From contig JAQXJB010000006.1 of the NCBI GenBank assembly GCA_029008095.1, positions 3,135 through 67,134 of the forward strand: DNA of 64,000 nt. Direction: 5' to 3'. Made by a program: the position numbers and the translations under genes. The notes beneath the pieces are model-generated. The model was not told the origin of the DNA. It saw only the letters and a list, made by a program, of their open reading frames with translations, and made no database searches. This document shows positions 6,764 to 41,632 of this stretch, one piece after another. The DNA is from Clostridiales bacterium (GTDB taxonomy: Bacteria; Bacillota; Clostridia; Oscillospirales; Oscillospiraceae). Each line of letters opens with the position of its first letter. Position 1 is the stretch's first letter.

Positions 6764-7023
6764 AACTTCTTGTTGTGGATATTATACTGCGCTTATGATA
6801 AAATTTATCACGTTCTATACATCGCTTTTTTCGGCGTAATTTAAGCGTATGACATACGTCCTGTAAAGTATATATCAAATTTCAACACATAAATATTGAA
6901 TATAAAGTGAAACCTTTTGCAGATTTTTTCGTCTGTATATATAGAACTGCAATTTTCATAAGACAGATATAAACCTTGCGAAAGCGGGTTTTGGCACGAT
7001 GAATCTAAAAGGAGCATACATAC

Positions 7024-7917
7024 ATGGCACAAGCTTCTACGCAAAGACCTCACGAACACGAAACGGAGAACCGGTCTTCGGAATATTACGTCGTCTCTCG
7101 CCGCAGGAGGCGCAGACGGCGCAGCCGCAGCCATCCCTTCATTTATCTTTTTCTTGCTTTGCTGCTGTTTTTCGGCGGCTTTCTGCTGGGCAGGCACAGT
7201 TCCGCCACGAGCGAAACAGACCCTCCCGAGCCGTCCGCGCCCTCTCTCAGCCTCCCCAGCCCGGATATAGACGAAACAGCTTCTCCCCAGCAGCCTGATG
7301 AAACCGTTCCTCCGGAGCAGTCAAATGAGCCGGTTGCCACCGAAAGGCCGTGGAATCTCGTTTTGGTCAACAAAGACAATTCGCTGGCCGAAGACTTTCA
7401 GGTTCCGGAGCTGACCCAGCTTCAAAACGGCCACGCCATAGACAGCCGCGCTTACCCGGCGCTGCAAAGCATGATGGACGCCGCACGCGCCGAGGGGCTG
7501 CAGCCGGTCATCTGTTCCTCCTTCCGCACCTGGGACAAGCAGGACGAGCTGTTTTACAGAAAGGTTCCGTATTATCTGGATCAGGGCTATTCACAGGAGG
7601 AAGCAGAAGAAAAAGCCGCTTTTTGGGTGGCTCGTCCCGGCACCAGCGAGCATCAGCTTGGGCTCGCTGTGGATATAGTGGACATCAACTATCAACTGCT
7701 GGATGAGAATCAGGAATCCACAGCCGTTCAGCAGTGGCTGATGAATCATTGCATGGAATACGGCTTTATACTTCGGTACCCGACCAGCAAGAGCGAGATT
7801 ACAGGCGTTGGCTACGAGCCCTGGCACTACCGCTATGTGGGAATTGAGGCCGCAAAAGAAATCAGCGAGCAGGGGCTTTGCCTTGAAGAATATCTTCAGG
7901 CTGTTCCGTGCAGTTGA
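7024..7917 (+). CDS. membrane-anchored M15-family D-alanyl-D-alanine carboxypeptidase (VanY-like)
   Basis: 297 aa. N-terminal poly-Arg plus a TM segment. C-terminal VanY motifs SEHQLGLAVD and EPWHYRYVG. Confidence 0.8.
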   Translation: MAQASTQRPHEHETENRSSEYYVVSRRRRRRRRSRSHPFIYLFLALLLFFGGFLLGRHSSATSETDPPEPSAPSLSLPSPDIDETASPQQPDETVPPEQSNEPVATERPWNLVLVNKDNSLAEDFQVPELTQLQNGHAIDSRAYPALQSMMDAARAEGLQPVICSSFRTWDKQDELFYRKVPYYLDQGYSQEEAEEKAAFWVARPGTSEHQLGLAVDIVDINYQLLDENQESTAVQQWLMNHCMEYGFILRYPTSKSEITGVGYEPWHYRYVGIEAAKEISEQGLCLEEYLQAVPCS

Positions 7918-9890: not shown

Positions 9891-10024
9891 ATCCTCCATG
9901 CGGCAGCACCGCAAAATAGTTATTAAAAATCCCCACGCATGGAGGATTTTTGCCATCATCTGCGGTTGCCGCGAAACAGCGAGCAGATGGACTTTTCATG
10001 ATATAGTGTGATTTTTCACACTAT
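9891..10024 (-). repeat. structured intergenic repeat, copy A (5' leader of 7979-9886)
   Basis: Contains ATCCTCCATGCG...CGCATGGAGGAT, CATCTGC...GCAGATG and AGTGTGATTTTTCACACT. GGAGG lies 6 nt from the ATG at 9886. Confidence 0.85.
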
Positions 10025-10050
10025 TCATCCTTCCACTTATCTTCCTTAAG

Positions 10051-10075
10051 GCAGCGGAATACGACTTCCGCTGCT
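10051..10075 (-). terminator. hairpin directly after the 10076-10720 stop (weak terminator candidate)
   Basis: GCAGCGGAA - 6 nt - TTCCGCTGC with a poor U-tract on the minus strand. Confidence 0.3.
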
Positions 10076-10720
10076 TTAGTTTATATGACTCAAAGCCTCA
10101 CGAGCCTTAGCCAGCAGTTCCTCATGCTCCGCCACATATTCCAGATATACATCATCCAGGAACTCCTGCGAATAATCGGCATACTCCGGGGACTCTGCGT
10201 CAAGAGGCTTTACCGGGGAATCATTTGTCGTGCAATAAAGGCCGGGCATGGCGCTGACCGCCACGGCATCCGCAAAATATCCCAGTTCGGAAAAGATATG
10301 ATAATTTTCTTCGTCCAGAATATAGATCATGGTATTCTGGTCATTAAGATGGCTGTAAAGGAGGTTTTCACCATAGCTTTCCATCACGCCTCCGTCGCGG
10401 CTCAGTTCAACGACTTCCACATCCACACGACGGTTTTTACCGGTCTCGGGCAGCAGACTCTCCATCAGCTCCCGTATCTCCTCCGCCCTGGCACTGTCGG
10501 CAGCTCCGTTATGGGCATATACCACAGTCCAATCATAGCTGACAGACGTGACCAAACCTACGGCAGCCATTATCAGCAGCGACAGCAGAAAAACGCCAAT
10601 GATAAAATACCATTTATAGTGAAACCAGAAGGTATTGGTAAGCCAATTCTCTATTTTCTCCATTCTTCCGAGTTCATCATTGGAGTTGTTTACCGGGGAC
10701 ATATCTTTTTCGTTATCCAT
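10076..10720 (-). CDS. hypothetical single-pass membrane protein
   Basis: Start set at the internal ATG (MDNEKDMSP...) 6 nt after the GGAGG of repeat copy B. One TM segment (YFIIGVFLLSLLIMAAVGLV). No family recognised. Confidence 0.6.
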   Translation of the reverse strand: MDNEKDMSPVNNSNDELGRMEKIENWLTNTFWFHYKWYFIIGVFLLSLLIMAAVGLVTSVSYDWTVVYAHNGAADSARAEEIRELMESLLPETGKNRRVDVEVVELSRDGGVMESYGENLLYSHLNDQNTMIYILDEENYHIFSELGYFADAVAVSAMPGLYCTTNDSPVKPLDAESPEYADYSQEFLDDVYLEYVAEHEELLAKAREALSHIN

Positions 10721-36198: not shown

Positions 36199-36279
36199 AT
36201 TAATATCATTAGATGTTTCTAATTGTGGAGCAGTTTGCCCTGCGGCAGCTTTGCTCCAGCTTTTTAAGGAGGTAATGAA

Positions 36280-36945
36280 ATGACAGACGCAAAGGATATG
36301 ACCTTCACTCTCGAAACCGCTCACGTTAAGGTTTCCGAGATGATCGGTGCTATCCCCACAACGCTCTCCGAATACCGCTGCCCGCTGTGCGGCAAGATAT
36401 TCGGAAGCTATGCAGACATCAAGCAGCACTACGCAGTAGAGCATGTCGGCGCTATCCCCCCCACTACCGTTGTACTTAACCTCAATGGCAAGAACTGCGA
36501 GGTCCTCATCGAACCCCACTGGACTCTCAAGCGCACTCTGCAGTTCCGCCTCGGCCTCACCGGCGCAAAGCACATGTGCGACAAGGGCGTCTGCGGCTCC
36601 TGCACCGTTATCATGGACGGCCGCGCAGTCCTCTCCTGCCAGATGCTCGCCGTAGAATGCGAGGGACACGCGATCCAGACCGTAGAAGGCATTGCCGCCG
36701 ATCCCAAGTGGAAGCCCCTGGTGGATGCTTACTGCCGCTGGGACGCTATGCAGTGCGGTTACTGCACCCCCGGCTTCCTGGTATCCGCCAAGGCTCTCCT
36801 GGACAAGAATCCCAACCCCACGGAACAGGAGATCAAGGAAGCTCTCTCGGGCAACATCTGCATCTGCGGTACTTATCCCCGCCACGCCCAGGCTATCCTG
36901 GAGGCGGTAGAAAGAATGTCGGAAGGAGCGGTAACAAATGGCTGA
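36280..36945 (+). CDS. molybdenum hydroxylase [2Fe-2S] small subunit with N-terminal C2H2 zinc-finger extension
   Basis: 221 aa with CDKGVCGSCTV and QCGYCTPGF cluster motifs. N-terminal YRCPLCGKIFGSYADIKQHYAVEH. Confidence 0.85.
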   Translation: MTDAKDMTFTLETAHVKVSEMIGAIPTTLSEYRCPLCGKIFGSYADIKQHYAVEHVGAIPPTTVVLNLNGKNCEVLIEPHWTLKRTLQFRLGLTGAKHMCDKGVCGSCTVIMDGRAVLSCQMLAVECEGHAIQTVEGIAADPKWKPLVDAYCRWDAMQCGYCTPGFLVSAKALLDKNPNPTEQEIKEALSGNICICGTYPRHAQAILEAVERMSEGAVTNG

Positions 36946-39283
36946 TATAGTAGGCGTAAACGGTCAAAGAGAAGATTTCCGAGTAGTCGGCAAGCACAAC
37001 CTTCCCGGCAAGCTTTCCTATGCTCTGGCTACCGGTATCGCTAAGTTCGGTATGGACTATGTTCTGCCCAACATGCTTCATGCCAAGTTTCTTCGCTGCC
37101 CCTATGCCAACGCGAAGATAGTCAAGCTGGACACCACCAAGGCCCGCGCTCTCCCCGGCGTTGTTGACATCGTCACCTGGGAAGACGAGGACATCAAGAA
37201 GCTCGGCCAGAACCCCTTCGGACCTCCCTCCCGTCCTTATCTGGATAATTGGGGCGATCAGGAAGGCGCCGAGGTCGGCTGCATCGTTGTCGCAGAGGAC
37301 GAGGATATCTGCGAAGAGGCTCTTCGTCTGCTGGATATCGAATGGGAAGTTCTCGGCCACGTTGTTGACACTCTTAAGGGCCGCGAGGACGATGCTCCCG
37401 TAGTCCGCCAGGTTCAGGAGCCCAAGGACATGTTCTCTCCCCCTCCCGCAAAGGAGAAGAAGGGCAACGTTTCCTACGCCGTCACCACTCAGGGCGACAT
37501 TGAGAAGGGCTTTGCCGAGGCTGACCACATCATCGAGTATAAGCTGATGCTCCCCGCATTCGCATCTCATATGCCCAATCCCCCCGCATCCGTCGCATGG
37601 TGGGAGAAGAACCCCTACCACGGCGAAGAGCCCGACCTTCACATCGAAGGCGCTGTCCAGAGACGTGAGAACATCGGCCGGATGTACGGCGTTTCCAACG
37701 AAAAGACCATCCAGGAAGGCCTCTTCCAGGGCGGTAAGTACTGCGACTGGGGTATGCGTAAGTCTCAGGAGATCACGCCCCTGCTGGCTAAGCGCACCGG
37801 CCGCCCCGTTCGCTGCGCAAACACTCGTGAGGAAACCTTCGACTTCCTCATGAACGAGCGCTTCATGTACCTCAAGGTTGGCTTTACCAAGGACGGTCTC
37901 ATAACCGCTATCGACGACTTCTCCGTTGCTGACAACGGCGTTTACGGTTCTTCCTCCTTCGGTGCCGCCAATGACCAGGGTTATGGCCCCTACTACACCT
38001 TCAAGTGCCCCAACATCCGTCAGCAGATGGACGTTGTCGACACCAACCGCGGCAAGATGTACCTCTCCGGCCAGCACTGCCCCTTTAACTGGGACTCCGG
38101 CACAATGGCCATCTACCTCATCGCGGAAAAGCTGGGCAAGGATCCCATCGATATTGCTCTACTGAACGTTCACGGTCCCGATTCTCAGGAAGACAACACC
38201 GTCACCCCCAGCTTCGCCGCCTGCATTGAGGCCGGTAAGAAGATGATGAACTGGAATTGGCACCCTGCCGGTACCAAAAAGCTTGAAGACGGCCGCATGC
38301 ACGGCGCCAGCTTCCGCTATCAGATTTGCCCCCGTCACGCATTCTCCGGCTATGACTGCAAGCTTGAGCTTAGAAACGGCGTAGTTCACCTGCCCACTCA
38401 GGGTCCCTGCACCGGTATCTTCGCAGTCGAGTGCAACGCAATGGTCGTTGCCGAAGAGCTTGGTCTGGAATACGAGGACATCGCCATCGATTTCGACTTC
38501 CGTGAGAAGTTCACCCCCGTCGGCGGCGGTTCTGACGGCTCCACCGCTTCCTCCTGGGCAATGAAGGAGTGCGCCAACATTCTGAAGCAGAAGATTCTCG
38601 AGTCCGCTATCAAGCAGGCAGACAATCCGCCTCCTCCGGGCATGTTCGGCTTTGGTGGTCCCAAGAAGGAAAATCCTCTCAAGGGTCACAAGCCCGAAGA
38701 TCTGGATATTATCAACGGCAACGTATGCCTGAAGGATGATCCCAGCCAGGGTATCCCCCTCGCGGAGGCCACCAGCGAGAATATCTTTGCCACTTACTCC
38801 GGCCGTCCCCCCGCGGCTATCTGGACTCTCGGCATGGGCAAGAAACTCGATACCATGAACACCGTTTACTGCGAAGTCGCTGTCGACACCGATACCGGCG
38901 AGGTCGAAATTCTTCGCTTCGGCGCTGTTGCCGACCCCGGTAAGGTTCTGCGTCCCACCTCTCTTGAAAGCCAGATCGATCAGGTTCTGTACTTCTCTCA
39001 GGGCTGCCAGCTCCTCGAAGAGTTCGTCTACGATGAAAAGACCGGCGTCCGCCTGAACAACAACATGATCGATTACAAGAAGCCTACCACGCTGGACGTT
39101 CCTCATATCGACAAGCAGTATCTTGAGACCCGTGCCGGTAACGCAGCTTACGGCGCAAGCGGTATCAGCCACTCTATGGCTAACACCCACGCTGTTATCA
39201 TCGCTATCCACAACGCTATCGGCGTTTGGGTAGATCCCCCTGCCACCCCGGACAAGATCCTCAAAGCTTTAGGAAAGGCATAA
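36938..39283 (+). CDS. xanthine dehydrogenase/aldehyde oxidase-family molybdopterin-binding large subunit
   Basis: 781 aa. 8-nt overlap with the small subunit. N-terminal a/b-hammerhead-like region and a C-terminal ...IIAIHNAIG segment typical of the family. Confidence 0.85.
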   Translation: MADIVGVNGQREDFRVVGKHNLPGKLSYALATGIAKFGMDYVLPNMLHAKFLRCPYANAKIVKLDTTKARALPGVVDIVTWEDEDIKKLGQNPFGPPSRPYLDNWGDQEGAEVGCIVVAEDEDICEEALRLLDIEWEVLGHVVDTLKGREDDAPVVRQVQEPKDMFSPPPAKEKKGNVSYAVTTQGDIEKGFAEADHIIEYKLMLPAFASHMPNPPASVAWWEKNPYHGEEPDLHIEGAVQRRENIGRMYGVSNEKTIQEGLFQGGKYCDWGMRKSQEITPLLAKRTGRPVRCANTREETFDFLMNERFMYLKVGFTKDGLITAIDDFSVADNGVYGSSSFGAANDQGYGPYYTFKCPNIRQQMDVVDTNRGKMYLSGQHCPFNWDSGTMAIYLIAEKLGKDPIDIALLNVHGPDSQEDNTVTPSFAACIEAGKKMMNWNWHPAGTKKLEDGRMHGASFRYQICPRHAFSGYDCKLELRNGVVHLPTQGPCTGIFAVECNAMVVAEELGLEYEDIAIDFDFREKFTPVGGGSDGSTASSWAMKECANILKQKILESAIKQADNPPPPGMFGFGGPKKENPLKGHKPEDLDIINGNVCLKDDPSQGIPLAEATSENIFATYSGRPPAAIWTLGMGKKLDTMNTVYCEVAVDTDTGEVEILRFGAVADPGKVLRPTSLESQIDQVLYFSQGCQLLEEFVYDEKTGVRLNNNMIDYKKPTTLDVPHIDKQYLETRAGNAAYGASGISHSMANTHAVIIAIHNAIGVWVDPPATPDKILKALGKA

Positions 39284-39292
39284 GGTGATAGA

Positions 39293-41632
39293 ATGAGACC
39301 TTTTAATCATACAAATGCCAAGACCCTGGAAGAGGCTTCAAAGGCTCTTGAACAGGGCAAGGCTGCTCTTATCGCCGGAGGTACTGATCTTCTCGGCACT
39401 CTGAAGGACAACATCCTTCGTGAATACCCCGAAAACGTTGTTAACATCAAGACCATACCCGGTCTGGATTACATCAAGGAAGAGGACGGCATGCTCAAGA
39501 TCGGCGCTCTGACCCGTCTGGCAGACATCGCCGAGTGCGCCGCCATCAAAGAGAAGTACACCGCACTGGCTCAGGCAGCCAAGGCCGTTGCTTCTCCCCA
39601 TCTGCGCGATATGGGTACCATCGCCGGCAATATCTCTCAGTTTCCCCGCTGCTGGTACTACCGCAAGGCCGAGAACCGCTTCGACTGTCTGCGTAAGGGC
39701 GGCACCGAGTGCTTCGCCCATACCGGCCAAAACCGTTTCCATTCCATCATGGGCGGCGCAAAGGTTCGCGCCACCTCCTGCCAGCAGGAGTGTCCTGCCG
39801 GCACCAACATCCCCGCTTACAATGACCGCATCCGTAAGGGTGATTGGGACGGCGCAGCCGAGATCATCATGCAGGTCAATCCCATGCCCATGATCACCGG
39901 CCGTGTCTGCGCCCACACCTGCCAGCAGCACTGCAACCGCTGCACCAGCGAATGTGACAGCGTTTACATCAACGGCGTAGAGCGCACTCTGGGCGACTAC
40001 ATACTCGACCACGCAGATAAGTTCTATAAGGCCCCCGAGGTCGAGACCGGCAAGTCTGTCGCCATCGTCGGCGGCGGCCCCGCTGGCCTTTCCGCAGCCT
40101 TCTATCTTCGCAAGGCAGGCAACAAGGTCACAGTTTACGACGTCAAGGACGAGGCCGGCGGCATGCTCATGTACGCCATCCCCGCTTACCGTCTGCCCAA
40201 GGATGTTGTCCGCAAGCTTATCAACGCTCTCAAGAGCATGGGCATTGAGTTCAAGACCGGCGTTCGCATCGGTGTCGACGTTGAGCCTTTGGAGCTTGAA
40301 AAGCAGTATGACAGCGTTTGCTACTCCACCGGTACCTGGAAGCGTCCCGTTGCCGGTCTGGCCGGTGAAGAGCTGACCCACTTCGGTCTGGACTTCCTGG
40401 TTGGCGTTGAGAAGTGGATGGAAGGCAAGATCGGTTCCGAGGTCATCGTAACCGGCGGCGGCAACGTTGCTATGGACGTTGCTATCACCGCAAAGCGTCT
40501 CGGCGCCAAGAAGGTCACTATGGCCTGCCTTGAGACCCGCGAGACCATGCCCGCCAGCAAGGAAGAGATCGCCCGTGCGGAAGAGGAAGGCGTTATCATC
40601 ATGCCCTCCTGGGGCCTCTCCAGAGTCGTTGAAGAGAACGGCATAGTCAAGGGTCTCGAGCTCAAGCGCTGCGTATCCACCCGCGATGCTGACGGCCGCT
40701 TCAACCCCAAGTACGACGAGAGTGAAAAGACCGTCATTGCCGCTGAGAACATCCTCATGGCTATCGGTCAGACGGTTGACCTCTCCTTCCTCGATGAGAA
40801 ATATCAGGTTCAGCTCAGCGCCCGCGGTCTGATAGATATTGACAATGAGGCTATGACCTCCCGTCCCGGTATCTATGCAGCCGGCGACGCTACCACCGGC
40901 CCGGGTACCGTTATCCGCGCCATTGCCAACGGTCACAAGGCTGCCAACGGTATGAACAAGTACCTCGGCGTTGCCGTTGCATCCGCTGACAATAAGCTTT
41001 ATCTCACCAAGCCCGCCGATGACGCTCCTTCCCGCACCAAGCAGATGAAGCTGCGCGAGGTCGCTCTTGAGGAGCGTTCCCTCAATGTTGAGGACGCTTT
41101 CACTGCTACTCCGGAAGAGGCCATTGAGGAAGCCAAGCGCTGCCTGAGCTGCAGCTGCTACGCCGTTCATCCCTCTGACGTAGCTCCCGCTCTCATCGCT
41201 CTTGACGCCAAGGTAATCACCAATAAGCGTGAGCTGGATATCAACGAATTCTTCACCGTTAAGGTTCCCTCCAGCACCGTTCTGATGCCCGGCGAGATCA
41301 TCACCGAAATTCAGATTCCCACCCCCAAGCCCGGCGTAAAGACTGCCTTCATAAAGTTTGCATACCGCAAGTCCATCGACTTCCCCGTAGTAAACTGCGC
41401 AGTTGCCGTTGGCGGCGAATCTCCCCGCGTATGTCTTAACGCCATTGCTCCCGTACCTTACCGTGCCCGCAAGGCTGAAGAGCTGCTCAGGGGCCAGGAA
41501 ATCACCGAAGCTCTGGCAGAAGCCGCAGGCGAGGCTGCCGTTATCGGCGCTCAGCCCGACGAAGACAACCGCTTCAAGGTTCAGATCTCCAAGGTCATGG
41601 TAAAGAGAGTCCTCCTCTCCACCCTGAAGTAA
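39293..41632 (+). CDS. Mo-hydroxylase FAD-binding subunit interrupted by a GltD-like NAD(P)H:FAD/Fe-S module
   Basis: 779 aa. CoxM/XdhB-like residues 1-156 and 623-779. The insert carries CPAGTNIP...GRVCAHTCQQHC and VAIVGGGPAGLSAA. Confidence 0.8.
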   Translation: MRPFNHTNAKTLEEASKALEQGKAALIAGGTDLLGTLKDNILREYPENVVNIKTIPGLDYIKEEDGMLKIGALTRLADIAECAAIKEKYTALAQAAKAVASPHLRDMGTIAGNISQFPRCWYYRKAENRFDCLRKGGTECFAHTGQNRFHSIMGGAKVRATSCQQECPAGTNIPAYNDRIRKGDWDGAAEIIMQVNPMPMITGRVCAHTCQQHCNRCTSECDSVYINGVERTLGDYILDHADKFYKAPEVETGKSVAIVGGGPAGLSAAFYLRKAGNKVTVYDVKDEAGGMLMYAIPAYRLPKDVVRKLINALKSMGIEFKTGVRIGVDVEPLELEKQYDSVCYSTGTWKRPVAGLAGEELTHFGLDFLVGVEKWMEGKIGSEVIVTGGGNVAMDVAITAKRLGAKKVTMACLETRETMPASKEEIARAEEEGVIIMPSWGLSRVVEENGIVKGLELKRCVSTRDADGRFNPKYDESEKTVIAAENILMAIGQTVDLSFLDEKYQVQLSARGLIDIDNEAMTSRPGIYAAGDATTGPGTVIRAIANGHKAANGMNKYLGVAVASADNKLYLTKPADDAPSRTKQMKLREVALEERSLNVEDAFTATPEEAIEEAKRCLSCSCYAVHPSDVAPALIALDAKVITNKRELDINEFFTVKVPSSTVLMPGEIITEIQIPTPKPGVKTAFIKFAYRKSIDFPVVNCAVAVGGESPRVCLNAIAPVPYRARKAEELLRGQEITEALAEAAGEAAVIGAQPDEDNRFKVQISKVMVKRVLLSTLK

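Follow-up and report, generated by a model that had tools for sequence, protein, structure and literature searches.

Does a small subunit of a bacterial molybdenum hydroxylase carry a zinc finger of the classical Cys2His2 (C2H2) type, and if so, what could the finger do there? The question is raised by a stretch of 64,000 nucleotides from a Clostridiales bacterium of the Oscillospiraceae (contig JAQXJB010000006.1, positions 3,135 to 67,134 of the forward strand), which is called the window hereafter. According to its list of open reading frames, the window contains on the plus strand, at 36280-36945, the gene for a [2Fe-2S] small subunit of 221 amino acids (aa), which comprises an N-terminal helix, a C2H2 finger and a core for two [2Fe-2S] clusters. 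The classical beta-beta-alpha C2H2 finger is characteristic of eukaryotic transcription factors and is seldom found in bacteria. An earlier reading of the letters alone (the sequence-only reading) had placed such a finger at residues 32-55 (36373-36444, plus strand; YRCPLCGKIFGSYADIKQHYAVEH), within an extension of about 60 aa. The analysis described here indicates that a Mo-hydroxylase small subunit has gained a classical zinc-finger module, which is the mark of a whole clade of uncharacterised enzymes; the role of the module is probably structural.

The segment YRCPLCGKIFGSYADIKQHYAVEH fits the consensus (F/Y)-x-C-x2-4-C-x3-F-x5-L-x2-H-x3-5-H at every position, as the sequence-only reading had stated. 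A strict form of this pattern, [FY]xCxxCxxx[FYLIVM]x5[LIVMF]xxHx3-5H, was searched in the open frames of 100 aa or more from all six reading frames (1.57 million residues) of the 2.27-Mb genome. Residues 32-55 were the only occurrence, while 0.0 were expected from 20 shuffles; thus, a chance origin of the motif is excluded. Two Pfam models were spanned over their whole length, zf-C2H2_4 (PF13894) with an E-value of 1.2e-4 and 22.9 bits (gathering cut-off 27) and zf-C2H2 (PF00096) with an E-value of 4e-4 and 21.1 bits (gathering cut-off 25.2). These matches are significant by E-value and lie below the gathering scores, which is usual for a lone finger. When 47 family members were scanned as single sequences at E <= 1e-3, zf-C2H2_4 was found in 37 and zf-C2H2 in 30 of them, the best E-value being 2.9e-6. 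A phmmer comparison with the PDB aligned the segment with designed and natural consensus fingers, e.g. Aart (2i13) and 1mey. The profile of the N-terminal module retrieved 38,822 proteins from 1.84 billion representatives, with E-values down to 1e-174, and among its best 150 matches finger arrays prevailed, proteins in which 8-72 stretches each were matched. This confirms the C2H2 identity and says nothing on other contexts of the module.

The fold was modelled with AlphaFold2. In the full-chain model, built on a 76-sequence alignment, residues 32-55 are predicted to form a beta-beta-alpha unit with strands at 32-33 and 40-41 and a helix at 44-54, with a predicted local distance difference test score (pLDDT) of about 95. 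The same secondary structure elements were predicted for the 56-aa module alone, with a pLDDT of about 83. When the isolated module was used in Foldseek, nearly all of the top 50 PDB matches were C2H2 fingers (e.g. 3iuf, 1.8 A over 26 columns), at E-values that were all >0.1, so that this support is qualitative only. No Pfam match to ROS_MUCR was obtained for the small subunit even at E <= 10, and together with the x12 spacing and the predicted beta-beta-alpha fold this sets the finger apart from the Ros/MucR type. Altogether, sequence and predicted fold place residues 32-55 with the classical C2H2 fingers, as a genuine beta-beta-alpha Cys2His2 zinc finger of the mature [2Fe-2S] subunit. From the ligand pattern we infer that one structural Zn(II) is bound by C34 (36379-36381), C37 (36388-36390), H50 (36427-36429) and H55 (36442-36444).

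The extension that carries the finger is a real addition to the known subunit type. Solved small subunits in the PDB, among them glyceraldehyde oxidoreductase (4zoh_C), nicotinate dehydrogenase (NDH; 3hrd_D), carbon monoxide dehydrogenase (CODH), quinoline oxidoreductase, 4-hydroxybenzoyl-CoA reductase (4-HBCR; 1rm6_C) and PaoA (5g5g_A), align to the core only, beginning at query residue 62-67 in every case. Likewise, Foldseek searches with the full-length model yielded about 155-160 aligned columns, which correspond to the core. Thus, no solved structure of a Mo-hydroxylase small subunit offers a precedent for the extension of about 62 aa, in agreement with the earlier statement that ordinary CoxS-, XdhC- and IorA-type subunits lack it. 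That no case was known in this enzyme family also held: no PDB small subunit has the extension, and the literature searched contained no description of a zinc finger on these enzymes.

Translation from a start codon downstream of the finger had been named as a possible objection. The only ATG codons 5' of the core encode M1, M7 and M21, all of which precede the finger, and the window sequence has no ATG, GTG or TTG between finger and core. The finger is therefore translated whenever the core is, and a downstream start cannot skip it. A Shine-Dalgarno sequence read directly from the DNA (AAGGAGG, 36267-36273, plus strand) lies 6 nucleotides 5' of the ATG and is invariant in the upstream alignment of related loci. 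N-terminal to the finger, an alpha-helix is predicted for residues 11-23 (36310-36348, plus strand; DSSP assignment of the AlphaFold2 model, pLDDT 68-83), and the consensus of this region, FTQESxxxxAAxxIxAIP, is conserved among homologues. C-terminal to the finger, a short linker, VGAIPPT (36445-36465, plus strand), leads to the first beta-strand of the ferredoxin-like domain; its P61 is invariant in our alignment of the family (A1), and residues 50-70 reach a pLDDT of about 95 in the full-length model. Within the genus, a short direct repeat at the protein level occurs on both sides of the finger, IGAIPTT (residues 22-28, 36343-36363, ggtgctatcccc) and VGAIPPTT (residues 56-63, 36445-36468, ggcgctatcccc), which is weaker in other clade members (AIPxxL / AVxPVT) and may be due to chance.

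The remainder of the protein (36466-36942, plus strand) is a canonical Mo-hydroxylase small-subunit core. Its eight cluster cysteines (C100, C105, C108 and C120; C159, C162, C194 and C196) are all invariant in alignment A1, residues 67-206 match Pfam Fer2_2 (E 5e-25), Fer2_3 and Fer2, and PDB small subunits match the core with E-values down to 3e-41. In Foldseek, target-normalised TM-scores of 0.85-0.90 were obtained for the core against the small subunits of NDH, 4-HBCR and CODH. With genes for a MoCoBD and a FAD_binding_5 subunit adjoining, the host protein is a bona fide [2Fe-2S] small subunit of the xanthine oxidase family. The first of these genes (36938-39283, plus strand), whose start overlaps the small-subunit stop (ATGGCTGA), encodes a molybdopterin-binding large subunit of 781 aa with the Pfam domains Ald_Xan_dh_C, MoCoBD_1 and MoCoBD_2. 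This protein is only distantly related to solved structures (best match 1t3q_B, E 5e-32). The second gene (39293-41632, plus strand) encodes a flavin adenine dinucleotide (FAD) subunit of 779 aa that is split by a GltD-like NAD(P)H module (NCBIfam PRK12771, E 9e-126); the Pfam layout is FAD_binding_5 (residues 4-115), Fer4_20, Pyr_redox_2 (255-547) and CO_deh_flav_C (687-776).

None of the equivalog cut-offs for HcrC/HcrA, PaoA/PaoC, XdhC or other named enzymes was reached. The small subunit scored 139.2 bits with TIGR03193 (4-hydroxybenzoyl-CoA reductase gamma; cut-off 257.8) and 125.3 bits with the PaoA equivalog NF008514 (cut-off 322), and the large subunit scored 182 with the HcrA-type equivalog (cut-off 994). 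The enzyme represents a distinct, uncharacterised clade of HcrABC/PaoABC-like molybdenum enzymes. The source genome contains a single copy of the finger-bearing subunit, in addition to a fused paralogue of 966 aa that lacks the finger.

Conservation contradicts the suspicion that the finger arose by chance or is an evolutionary leftover without function. In the 120 nearest homologues (68-96% identity, 199-260 aa), almost all of which span the extension, C-x2-C-x12-H-x4-H was kept in 117. C34, H50 and H55 are invariant in alignment A1, and C37 is conserved to at least 90%. When the gene was compared with the three closest loci, the ratio of non-synonymous to synonymous substitution rates (dN/dS) was 0.07-0.11 for residues 1-62 and 0.04-0.14 for the core, and the finger itself showed 9-11 synonymous and 1-2 non-synonymous differences. 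Purifying selection on the finger is thus as strong as in the catalytic core. A relic could be imagined on the model of P0288, a distant fused small plus large subunit of 1013 aa from a metagenome-assembled Dehalococcoidia genome, in which finger-like repeats have lost their His ligands. For the clade studied here such a fate is hardly credible and is already contradicted by ligands that are invariant across five phyla, by the dN/dS of about 0.1 and by the uniqueness of the motif in the genome. In P0288 itself, two tandem motifs without His ligands, YICPYDGKAFDTFEQLTQYISDNYP and FMSPYDNREFSSLQELKAYLDSMF, are found at residues 55-110 behind a Tat-like leader (Tat, twin-arginine translocation); the first of them matches the finger profile with an hhalign E-value of 1.6e-4 and a probability of 51%. 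The two motifs may be related to the module and represent a version without zinc, in a different clade of molybdenum enzymes.

The only ligand change observed was C37 to Asp (RCPLDG / RCPIDG), and Asp is itself a metal ligand; all other ligands were kept, which lends indirect support to a Zn site. This replacement was found in an Oscillospiraceae lineage (L030:7001-7156 and L044 near 7001-7156), separately in an acidobacterial locus (L079, near 7001-7114), and also in the proteins P0069, P0094 and P0099. It bears on the idea that the metal in the Cys2His2 site, e.g. Fe, is redox-active or regulatory, or that the site works as a thiol redox switch, and that the electron-transfer chain is thereby extended or gated. 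The position of the site could invite this idea, as it is N-terminal in the domain with [2Fe-2S] cluster II, and in solved homologues (CODH, 4-HBCR) this cluster is located next to the FAD. However, the Cys-to-Asp variants are easier to reconcile with a structural metal than with a thiol switch, both spacing and predicted fold correspond to a structural Zn site of the mononuclear kind, and electron transfer in the solved homologues runs without any such site. We therefore rate a redox function as highly improbable.

How far the module is spread was studied in collections with one genome per species, in which 387 stretches with a relative were found; the best 80 of these were analysed. They fall into five phyla, namely Bacillota, with Oscillospiraceae (including Sporobacter termitidis DSM 10068 and Papillibacter), Clostridiales and Peptococcaceae; Acidobacteriota; Thermodesulfobacteriota, with Desulfatiglans and Desulfobacteraceae; Spirochaetota; and Planctomycetota, with Sedimentisphaerales. 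Within the family of the source organism, 15 of 201 genomes encode a finger-bearing subunit, some of them in two or three copies. The edge of the clade is sharp: finger-bearing matches have identities of 59% or more and alignments that begin at residue 6-16, and the next matches have identities of 50% or less, with alignments that begin at residue 61-68. The large subunits that accompany the nearest finger-less small subunits are only 24-29% identical, as compared with at least 56% within the clade, and hence these finger-less subunits belong to quite different enzymes. The distribution survey thus identified extension and finger as marks of one discrete clade.

In line with the earlier remark that classical fingers are rare in bacteria, PF13894 had matches in 4 of 301 Bacillota genomes. 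The family-specific module profile matched in 2 of 401 Bacillota genomes, in both cases in frames of small-subunit size, and across the roughly 400 Bacillota genomes scanned the module was not found in any other protein context. As far as these samples reach, the finger is rare in bacteria and confined to this enzyme clade. In some database entries, automatic matches to PF13894 or PF00096 are already present beside Fer2_2; the architecture is therefore visible in databases but has not been remarked on.

Several genomes contain more than one clade member. In the locus L021, part of a 4.2-Mb metagenome chromosome, two finger-bearing small-subunit genes (7001-7633 and near 10020-10700) flank one large-subunit gene, and two or three copies were seen in several other genomes (G136, G002, G007, G140 and the cultured Sporobacter termitidis, with at least L037 and L071). 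A second small-subunit copy in L027 (11554-12297) has its finger region out of frame, with IPLPHCGKNLATFAELKNHFATAH after an unrelated upstream reading, and is either a frameshifted pseudogene or an assembly error.

The 80 related loci comprise two forms of the enzyme. In the cytoplasmic form, found in Bacillota and Spirochaetota, the small subunit has no Tat signal and the FAD subunit contains the GltD insert (41 of the 41 loci with a visible FAD gene). In the exported form, found in the Gram-negative lineages Acidobacteriota, Thermodesulfobacteriota and Sedimentisphaerales, the small subunit starts with a canonical twin-arginine signal and the FAD subunit is plain, with about 315 aa (11 of the 11 loci with a visible FAD gene). 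The signal, of which RRNFLKNAGVIIGGSALGAAG and NRRNFLKNAGVIIGGSALGAAG are examples, is located immediately N-terminal to the helix-plus-finger module in the Tat-type loci (L027, L029, L031, L057, L058, L061-L063, L066-L070, L072-L077, L079 and L080, genes near locus position 7000). In a tree of small and large subunits, the 13 Tat-type loci that were included formed one well-supported clade (SH-aLRT 97).

The Bacillota proteins begin where the mature Tat-type proteins would begin (FTQES / TLRPE), and the helix region follows directly after the signal peptide in the Tat-type homologues, so that by sequence helix 11-23 corresponds to the first residues of the mature exported protein. Since these starts coincide and the finger is kept in both the cytoplasmic and the exported group, the mature enzyme contains the finger in either compartment. 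Within this one clade there has apparently been a switch between two forms, one periplasmic and the other cytoplasmic and NAD(P)H-linked. The presence of the finger with and without the GltD insert means that its role is independent of the NAD(P)H module and of the route of electron entry. Accordingly, the finger as a dock for the GltD-like insert of the FAD subunit was rejected, as Tat-type members without the insert retain the finger. A role as support of an HcrB/PaoB-like [4Fe-4S] loop was weakened as well. HcrABC (4-HBCR) and PaoABC have such a loop in the FAD subunit while their small subunits lack the finger, which is therefore no general requirement of the loop. The sequence-only reading had covered neither the clade-defining nature of the finger across phyla, nor the Tat signal in front of it in many members, nor its independence from the GltD insert.

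Next to one Tat-type operon (L085:8632-12877), genes for a multihaem cytochrome c of 400 aa, a tungsten/molybdenum oxidoreductase of the AOR family and a polyferredoxin were observed, whose products are candidate periplasmic electron partners. The proximity of this cytochrome gene would agree with a finger that points outwards and docks a partner from outside the enzyme, be it the physiological electron carrier or a factor for maturation or export, instead of acting as an internal clamp, and so would the retention of the finger in both cellular forms. The conserved surface aromatics and the Arg described below are equally suited to a transient partner. Yet electron input differs completely between the two forms, by way of a fused NAD(P)H module in one and of a periplasmic location in the other, and the finger surface is conserved in both; moreover, no partner gene is conserved across the loci examined. 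We consider external docking unlikely, although it is the most serious of the competing explanations.

The surface of the module was analysed over 121 sequences. The module is acidic, with a net charge of -1.9 on average; the finger itself is neutral, and this single finger has no basic flanks. At helix positions -1, +2 and +3, which contact bases in DNA-binding fingers, mostly Ser, Ala/Asp/Glu and Asp/Gly/Glu occur, respectively. By contrast, several positions outside the canonical finger core are conserved, as would be expected of an interface. Cys1 is preceded by Arg in 114 of the 121 sequences and followed by Pro in 109, helix position +1 is Tyr, His or Phe in 108, His1 is followed by Tyr or Phe in 117, and His2 is preceded by Glu or Asp in 96.

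Of the roles suggested in the sequence-only reading, a structural Zn site or a docking module is favoured by these data, and nucleic-acid binding is disfavoured by the acidic charge, the single finger and the acidic or small residues at base-contacting positions. A moonlighting activity on nucleic acids, e.g. of an unassembled small subunit that autoregulates its synthesis at its own promoter or leader hairpin, would draw on the closeness of the sequence to the DNA-binding consensus fingers 1mey and Aart and on a leader hairpin with compensatory changes within the genus. This hairpin (36226-36258) lies between a conserved promoter (TTGACA ... TAATAT) and the Shine-Dalgarno sequence. In L001-L003, relatives from within the genus, its arms show compensatory changes (GGAGCAG/GCTCC versus GGGGGCAG/CCCC), but its folding z-score is only -1.5 and its sequence is not conserved in L004 or L010. 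Besides the unfavourable charge and recognition residues, the lack of conservation of the hairpin outside the genus stands against such an activity, as does the fact that the Tat-type homologues, half of the clade, leave the cytoplasm with the finger attached. Nucleic-acid binding is thus very unlikely. Slightly lower still we place the specific proposal that free small subunit binds its leader hairpin or promoter, couples synthesis to assembly in this way and has kept the ancestral nucleic-acid binding of C2H2 fingers. If this were true, a subunit of a bacterial metabolic enzyme would double as a zinc-finger regulator in the eukaryotic manner.

We regard it as reasonably probable that the finger acts as a structural Zn site and rigid protein-protein module of the enzyme. 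The finger would bind one structural Zn(II) and form a rigid mini-domain for protein-protein contact, and together with helix 11-23 it would pack on the N-terminal ferredoxin-like domain of the small subunit. Finger and helix would probably also pack on a neighbouring core subunit and thereby stabilise or assemble the heterotrimer. The finger would have no part in catalysis, electron transfer or nucleic-acid binding. Between the model of the isolated module and that of the full-length chain, the pLDDT of the finger rises from about 83 to about 95, a hint of packing against the core. In the solved homologues CODH and 4-HBCR the small subunit is turned with its N-terminal domain towards the FAD subunit, and by analogy the small/FAD interface would be the likeliest neighbourhood of the finger.

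Some points weigh against this assignment. Both Pfam scores stay below their gathering cut-offs, the Foldseek matches of the isolated module are limited by their E-values, and the binding of zinc is deduced from the sequence only. The rise in pLDDT is soft evidence. A natural fusion of small and large subunit within the clade, sought as a surrogate for the complex, was not found; the best fused proteins were at most 53% identical and aligned with the core only. Finally, HcrABC and PaoABC function without such a module, which leaves the need for the finger in the present enzymes unexplained.

The finger would most likely provide a natural example of the C2H2 fold in use as a protein-protein module, which bears on the origin of the fold. 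By this one motif it is also possible to recognise a large clade of uncharacterised molybdenum enzymes, whose members come from gut, rumen, termite-gut, digester and sediment anaerobes. Sporobacter, Papillibacter and Desulfatiglans are isolates or lineages known for the degradation of aromatic compounds. A probable Zn site in the mature subunit is of relevance for expression, purification and modelling of these enzymes.

Compared with known systems, the exported members resemble PaoABC of E. coli (5G5G), in which the [2Fe-2S] subunit likewise carries a Tat signal and the FAD subunit is plain. Unlike in these members, the core of PaoA directly follows the signal peptide, with no helix-plus-finger module in between. 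HcrCAB (1RM6/1SB3) and the urolithin dehydroxylases Ucd and Uxd (PMC11760930, PMC12658268) are, like the enzyme described here, three-subunit members of the xanthine oxidase family from anaerobes. The 4-HBCR small subunit shares the core fold (TM-score 0.85-0.87, 39% identity); HcrC lacks the N-terminal extension and aligned from query residue 65, and the relationship of HcrA to the large subunit is remote (E 1e-27, partial). Uxd, which has been expressed in Clostridium sporogenes (PMC12658268), has the same F-O-C gene order as the present operon. UcdF and UxdF of Enterocloster are similar in length, two 2Fe-2S domains being the only ones named for them in the urolithin dehydroxylase paper, and the papers searched on gut urolithin dehydroxylases (PMC11760930 and PMC12658268 among them) make no mention of zinc or of a finger. 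The Ros/MucR proteins of alpha-proteobacteria have a 58-residue beta-beta-beta-alpha-alpha DNA-binding domain with shorter ligand spacing (PMC9779718, PMC7283297). A bacterial Cys2His2 zinc site is common to both, whereas the finger studied here has the classical x12 spacing and a predicted beta-beta-alpha fold. Like the TFIIIA/Krueppel-type fingers (PF00096 / PF13894), it combines this predicted fold with the ligand spacing (F/Y)-x-C-x2-C-x3-F-x5-L-x2-H-x4-H. Unlike them, it occurs as a single copy in a bacterial redox enzyme instead of in a transcription-factor array, is acidic to neutral instead of basic, and displays family-specific surface residues, namely the Arg before Cys1, the aromatic residue at helix position +1 and the Tyr after His1.

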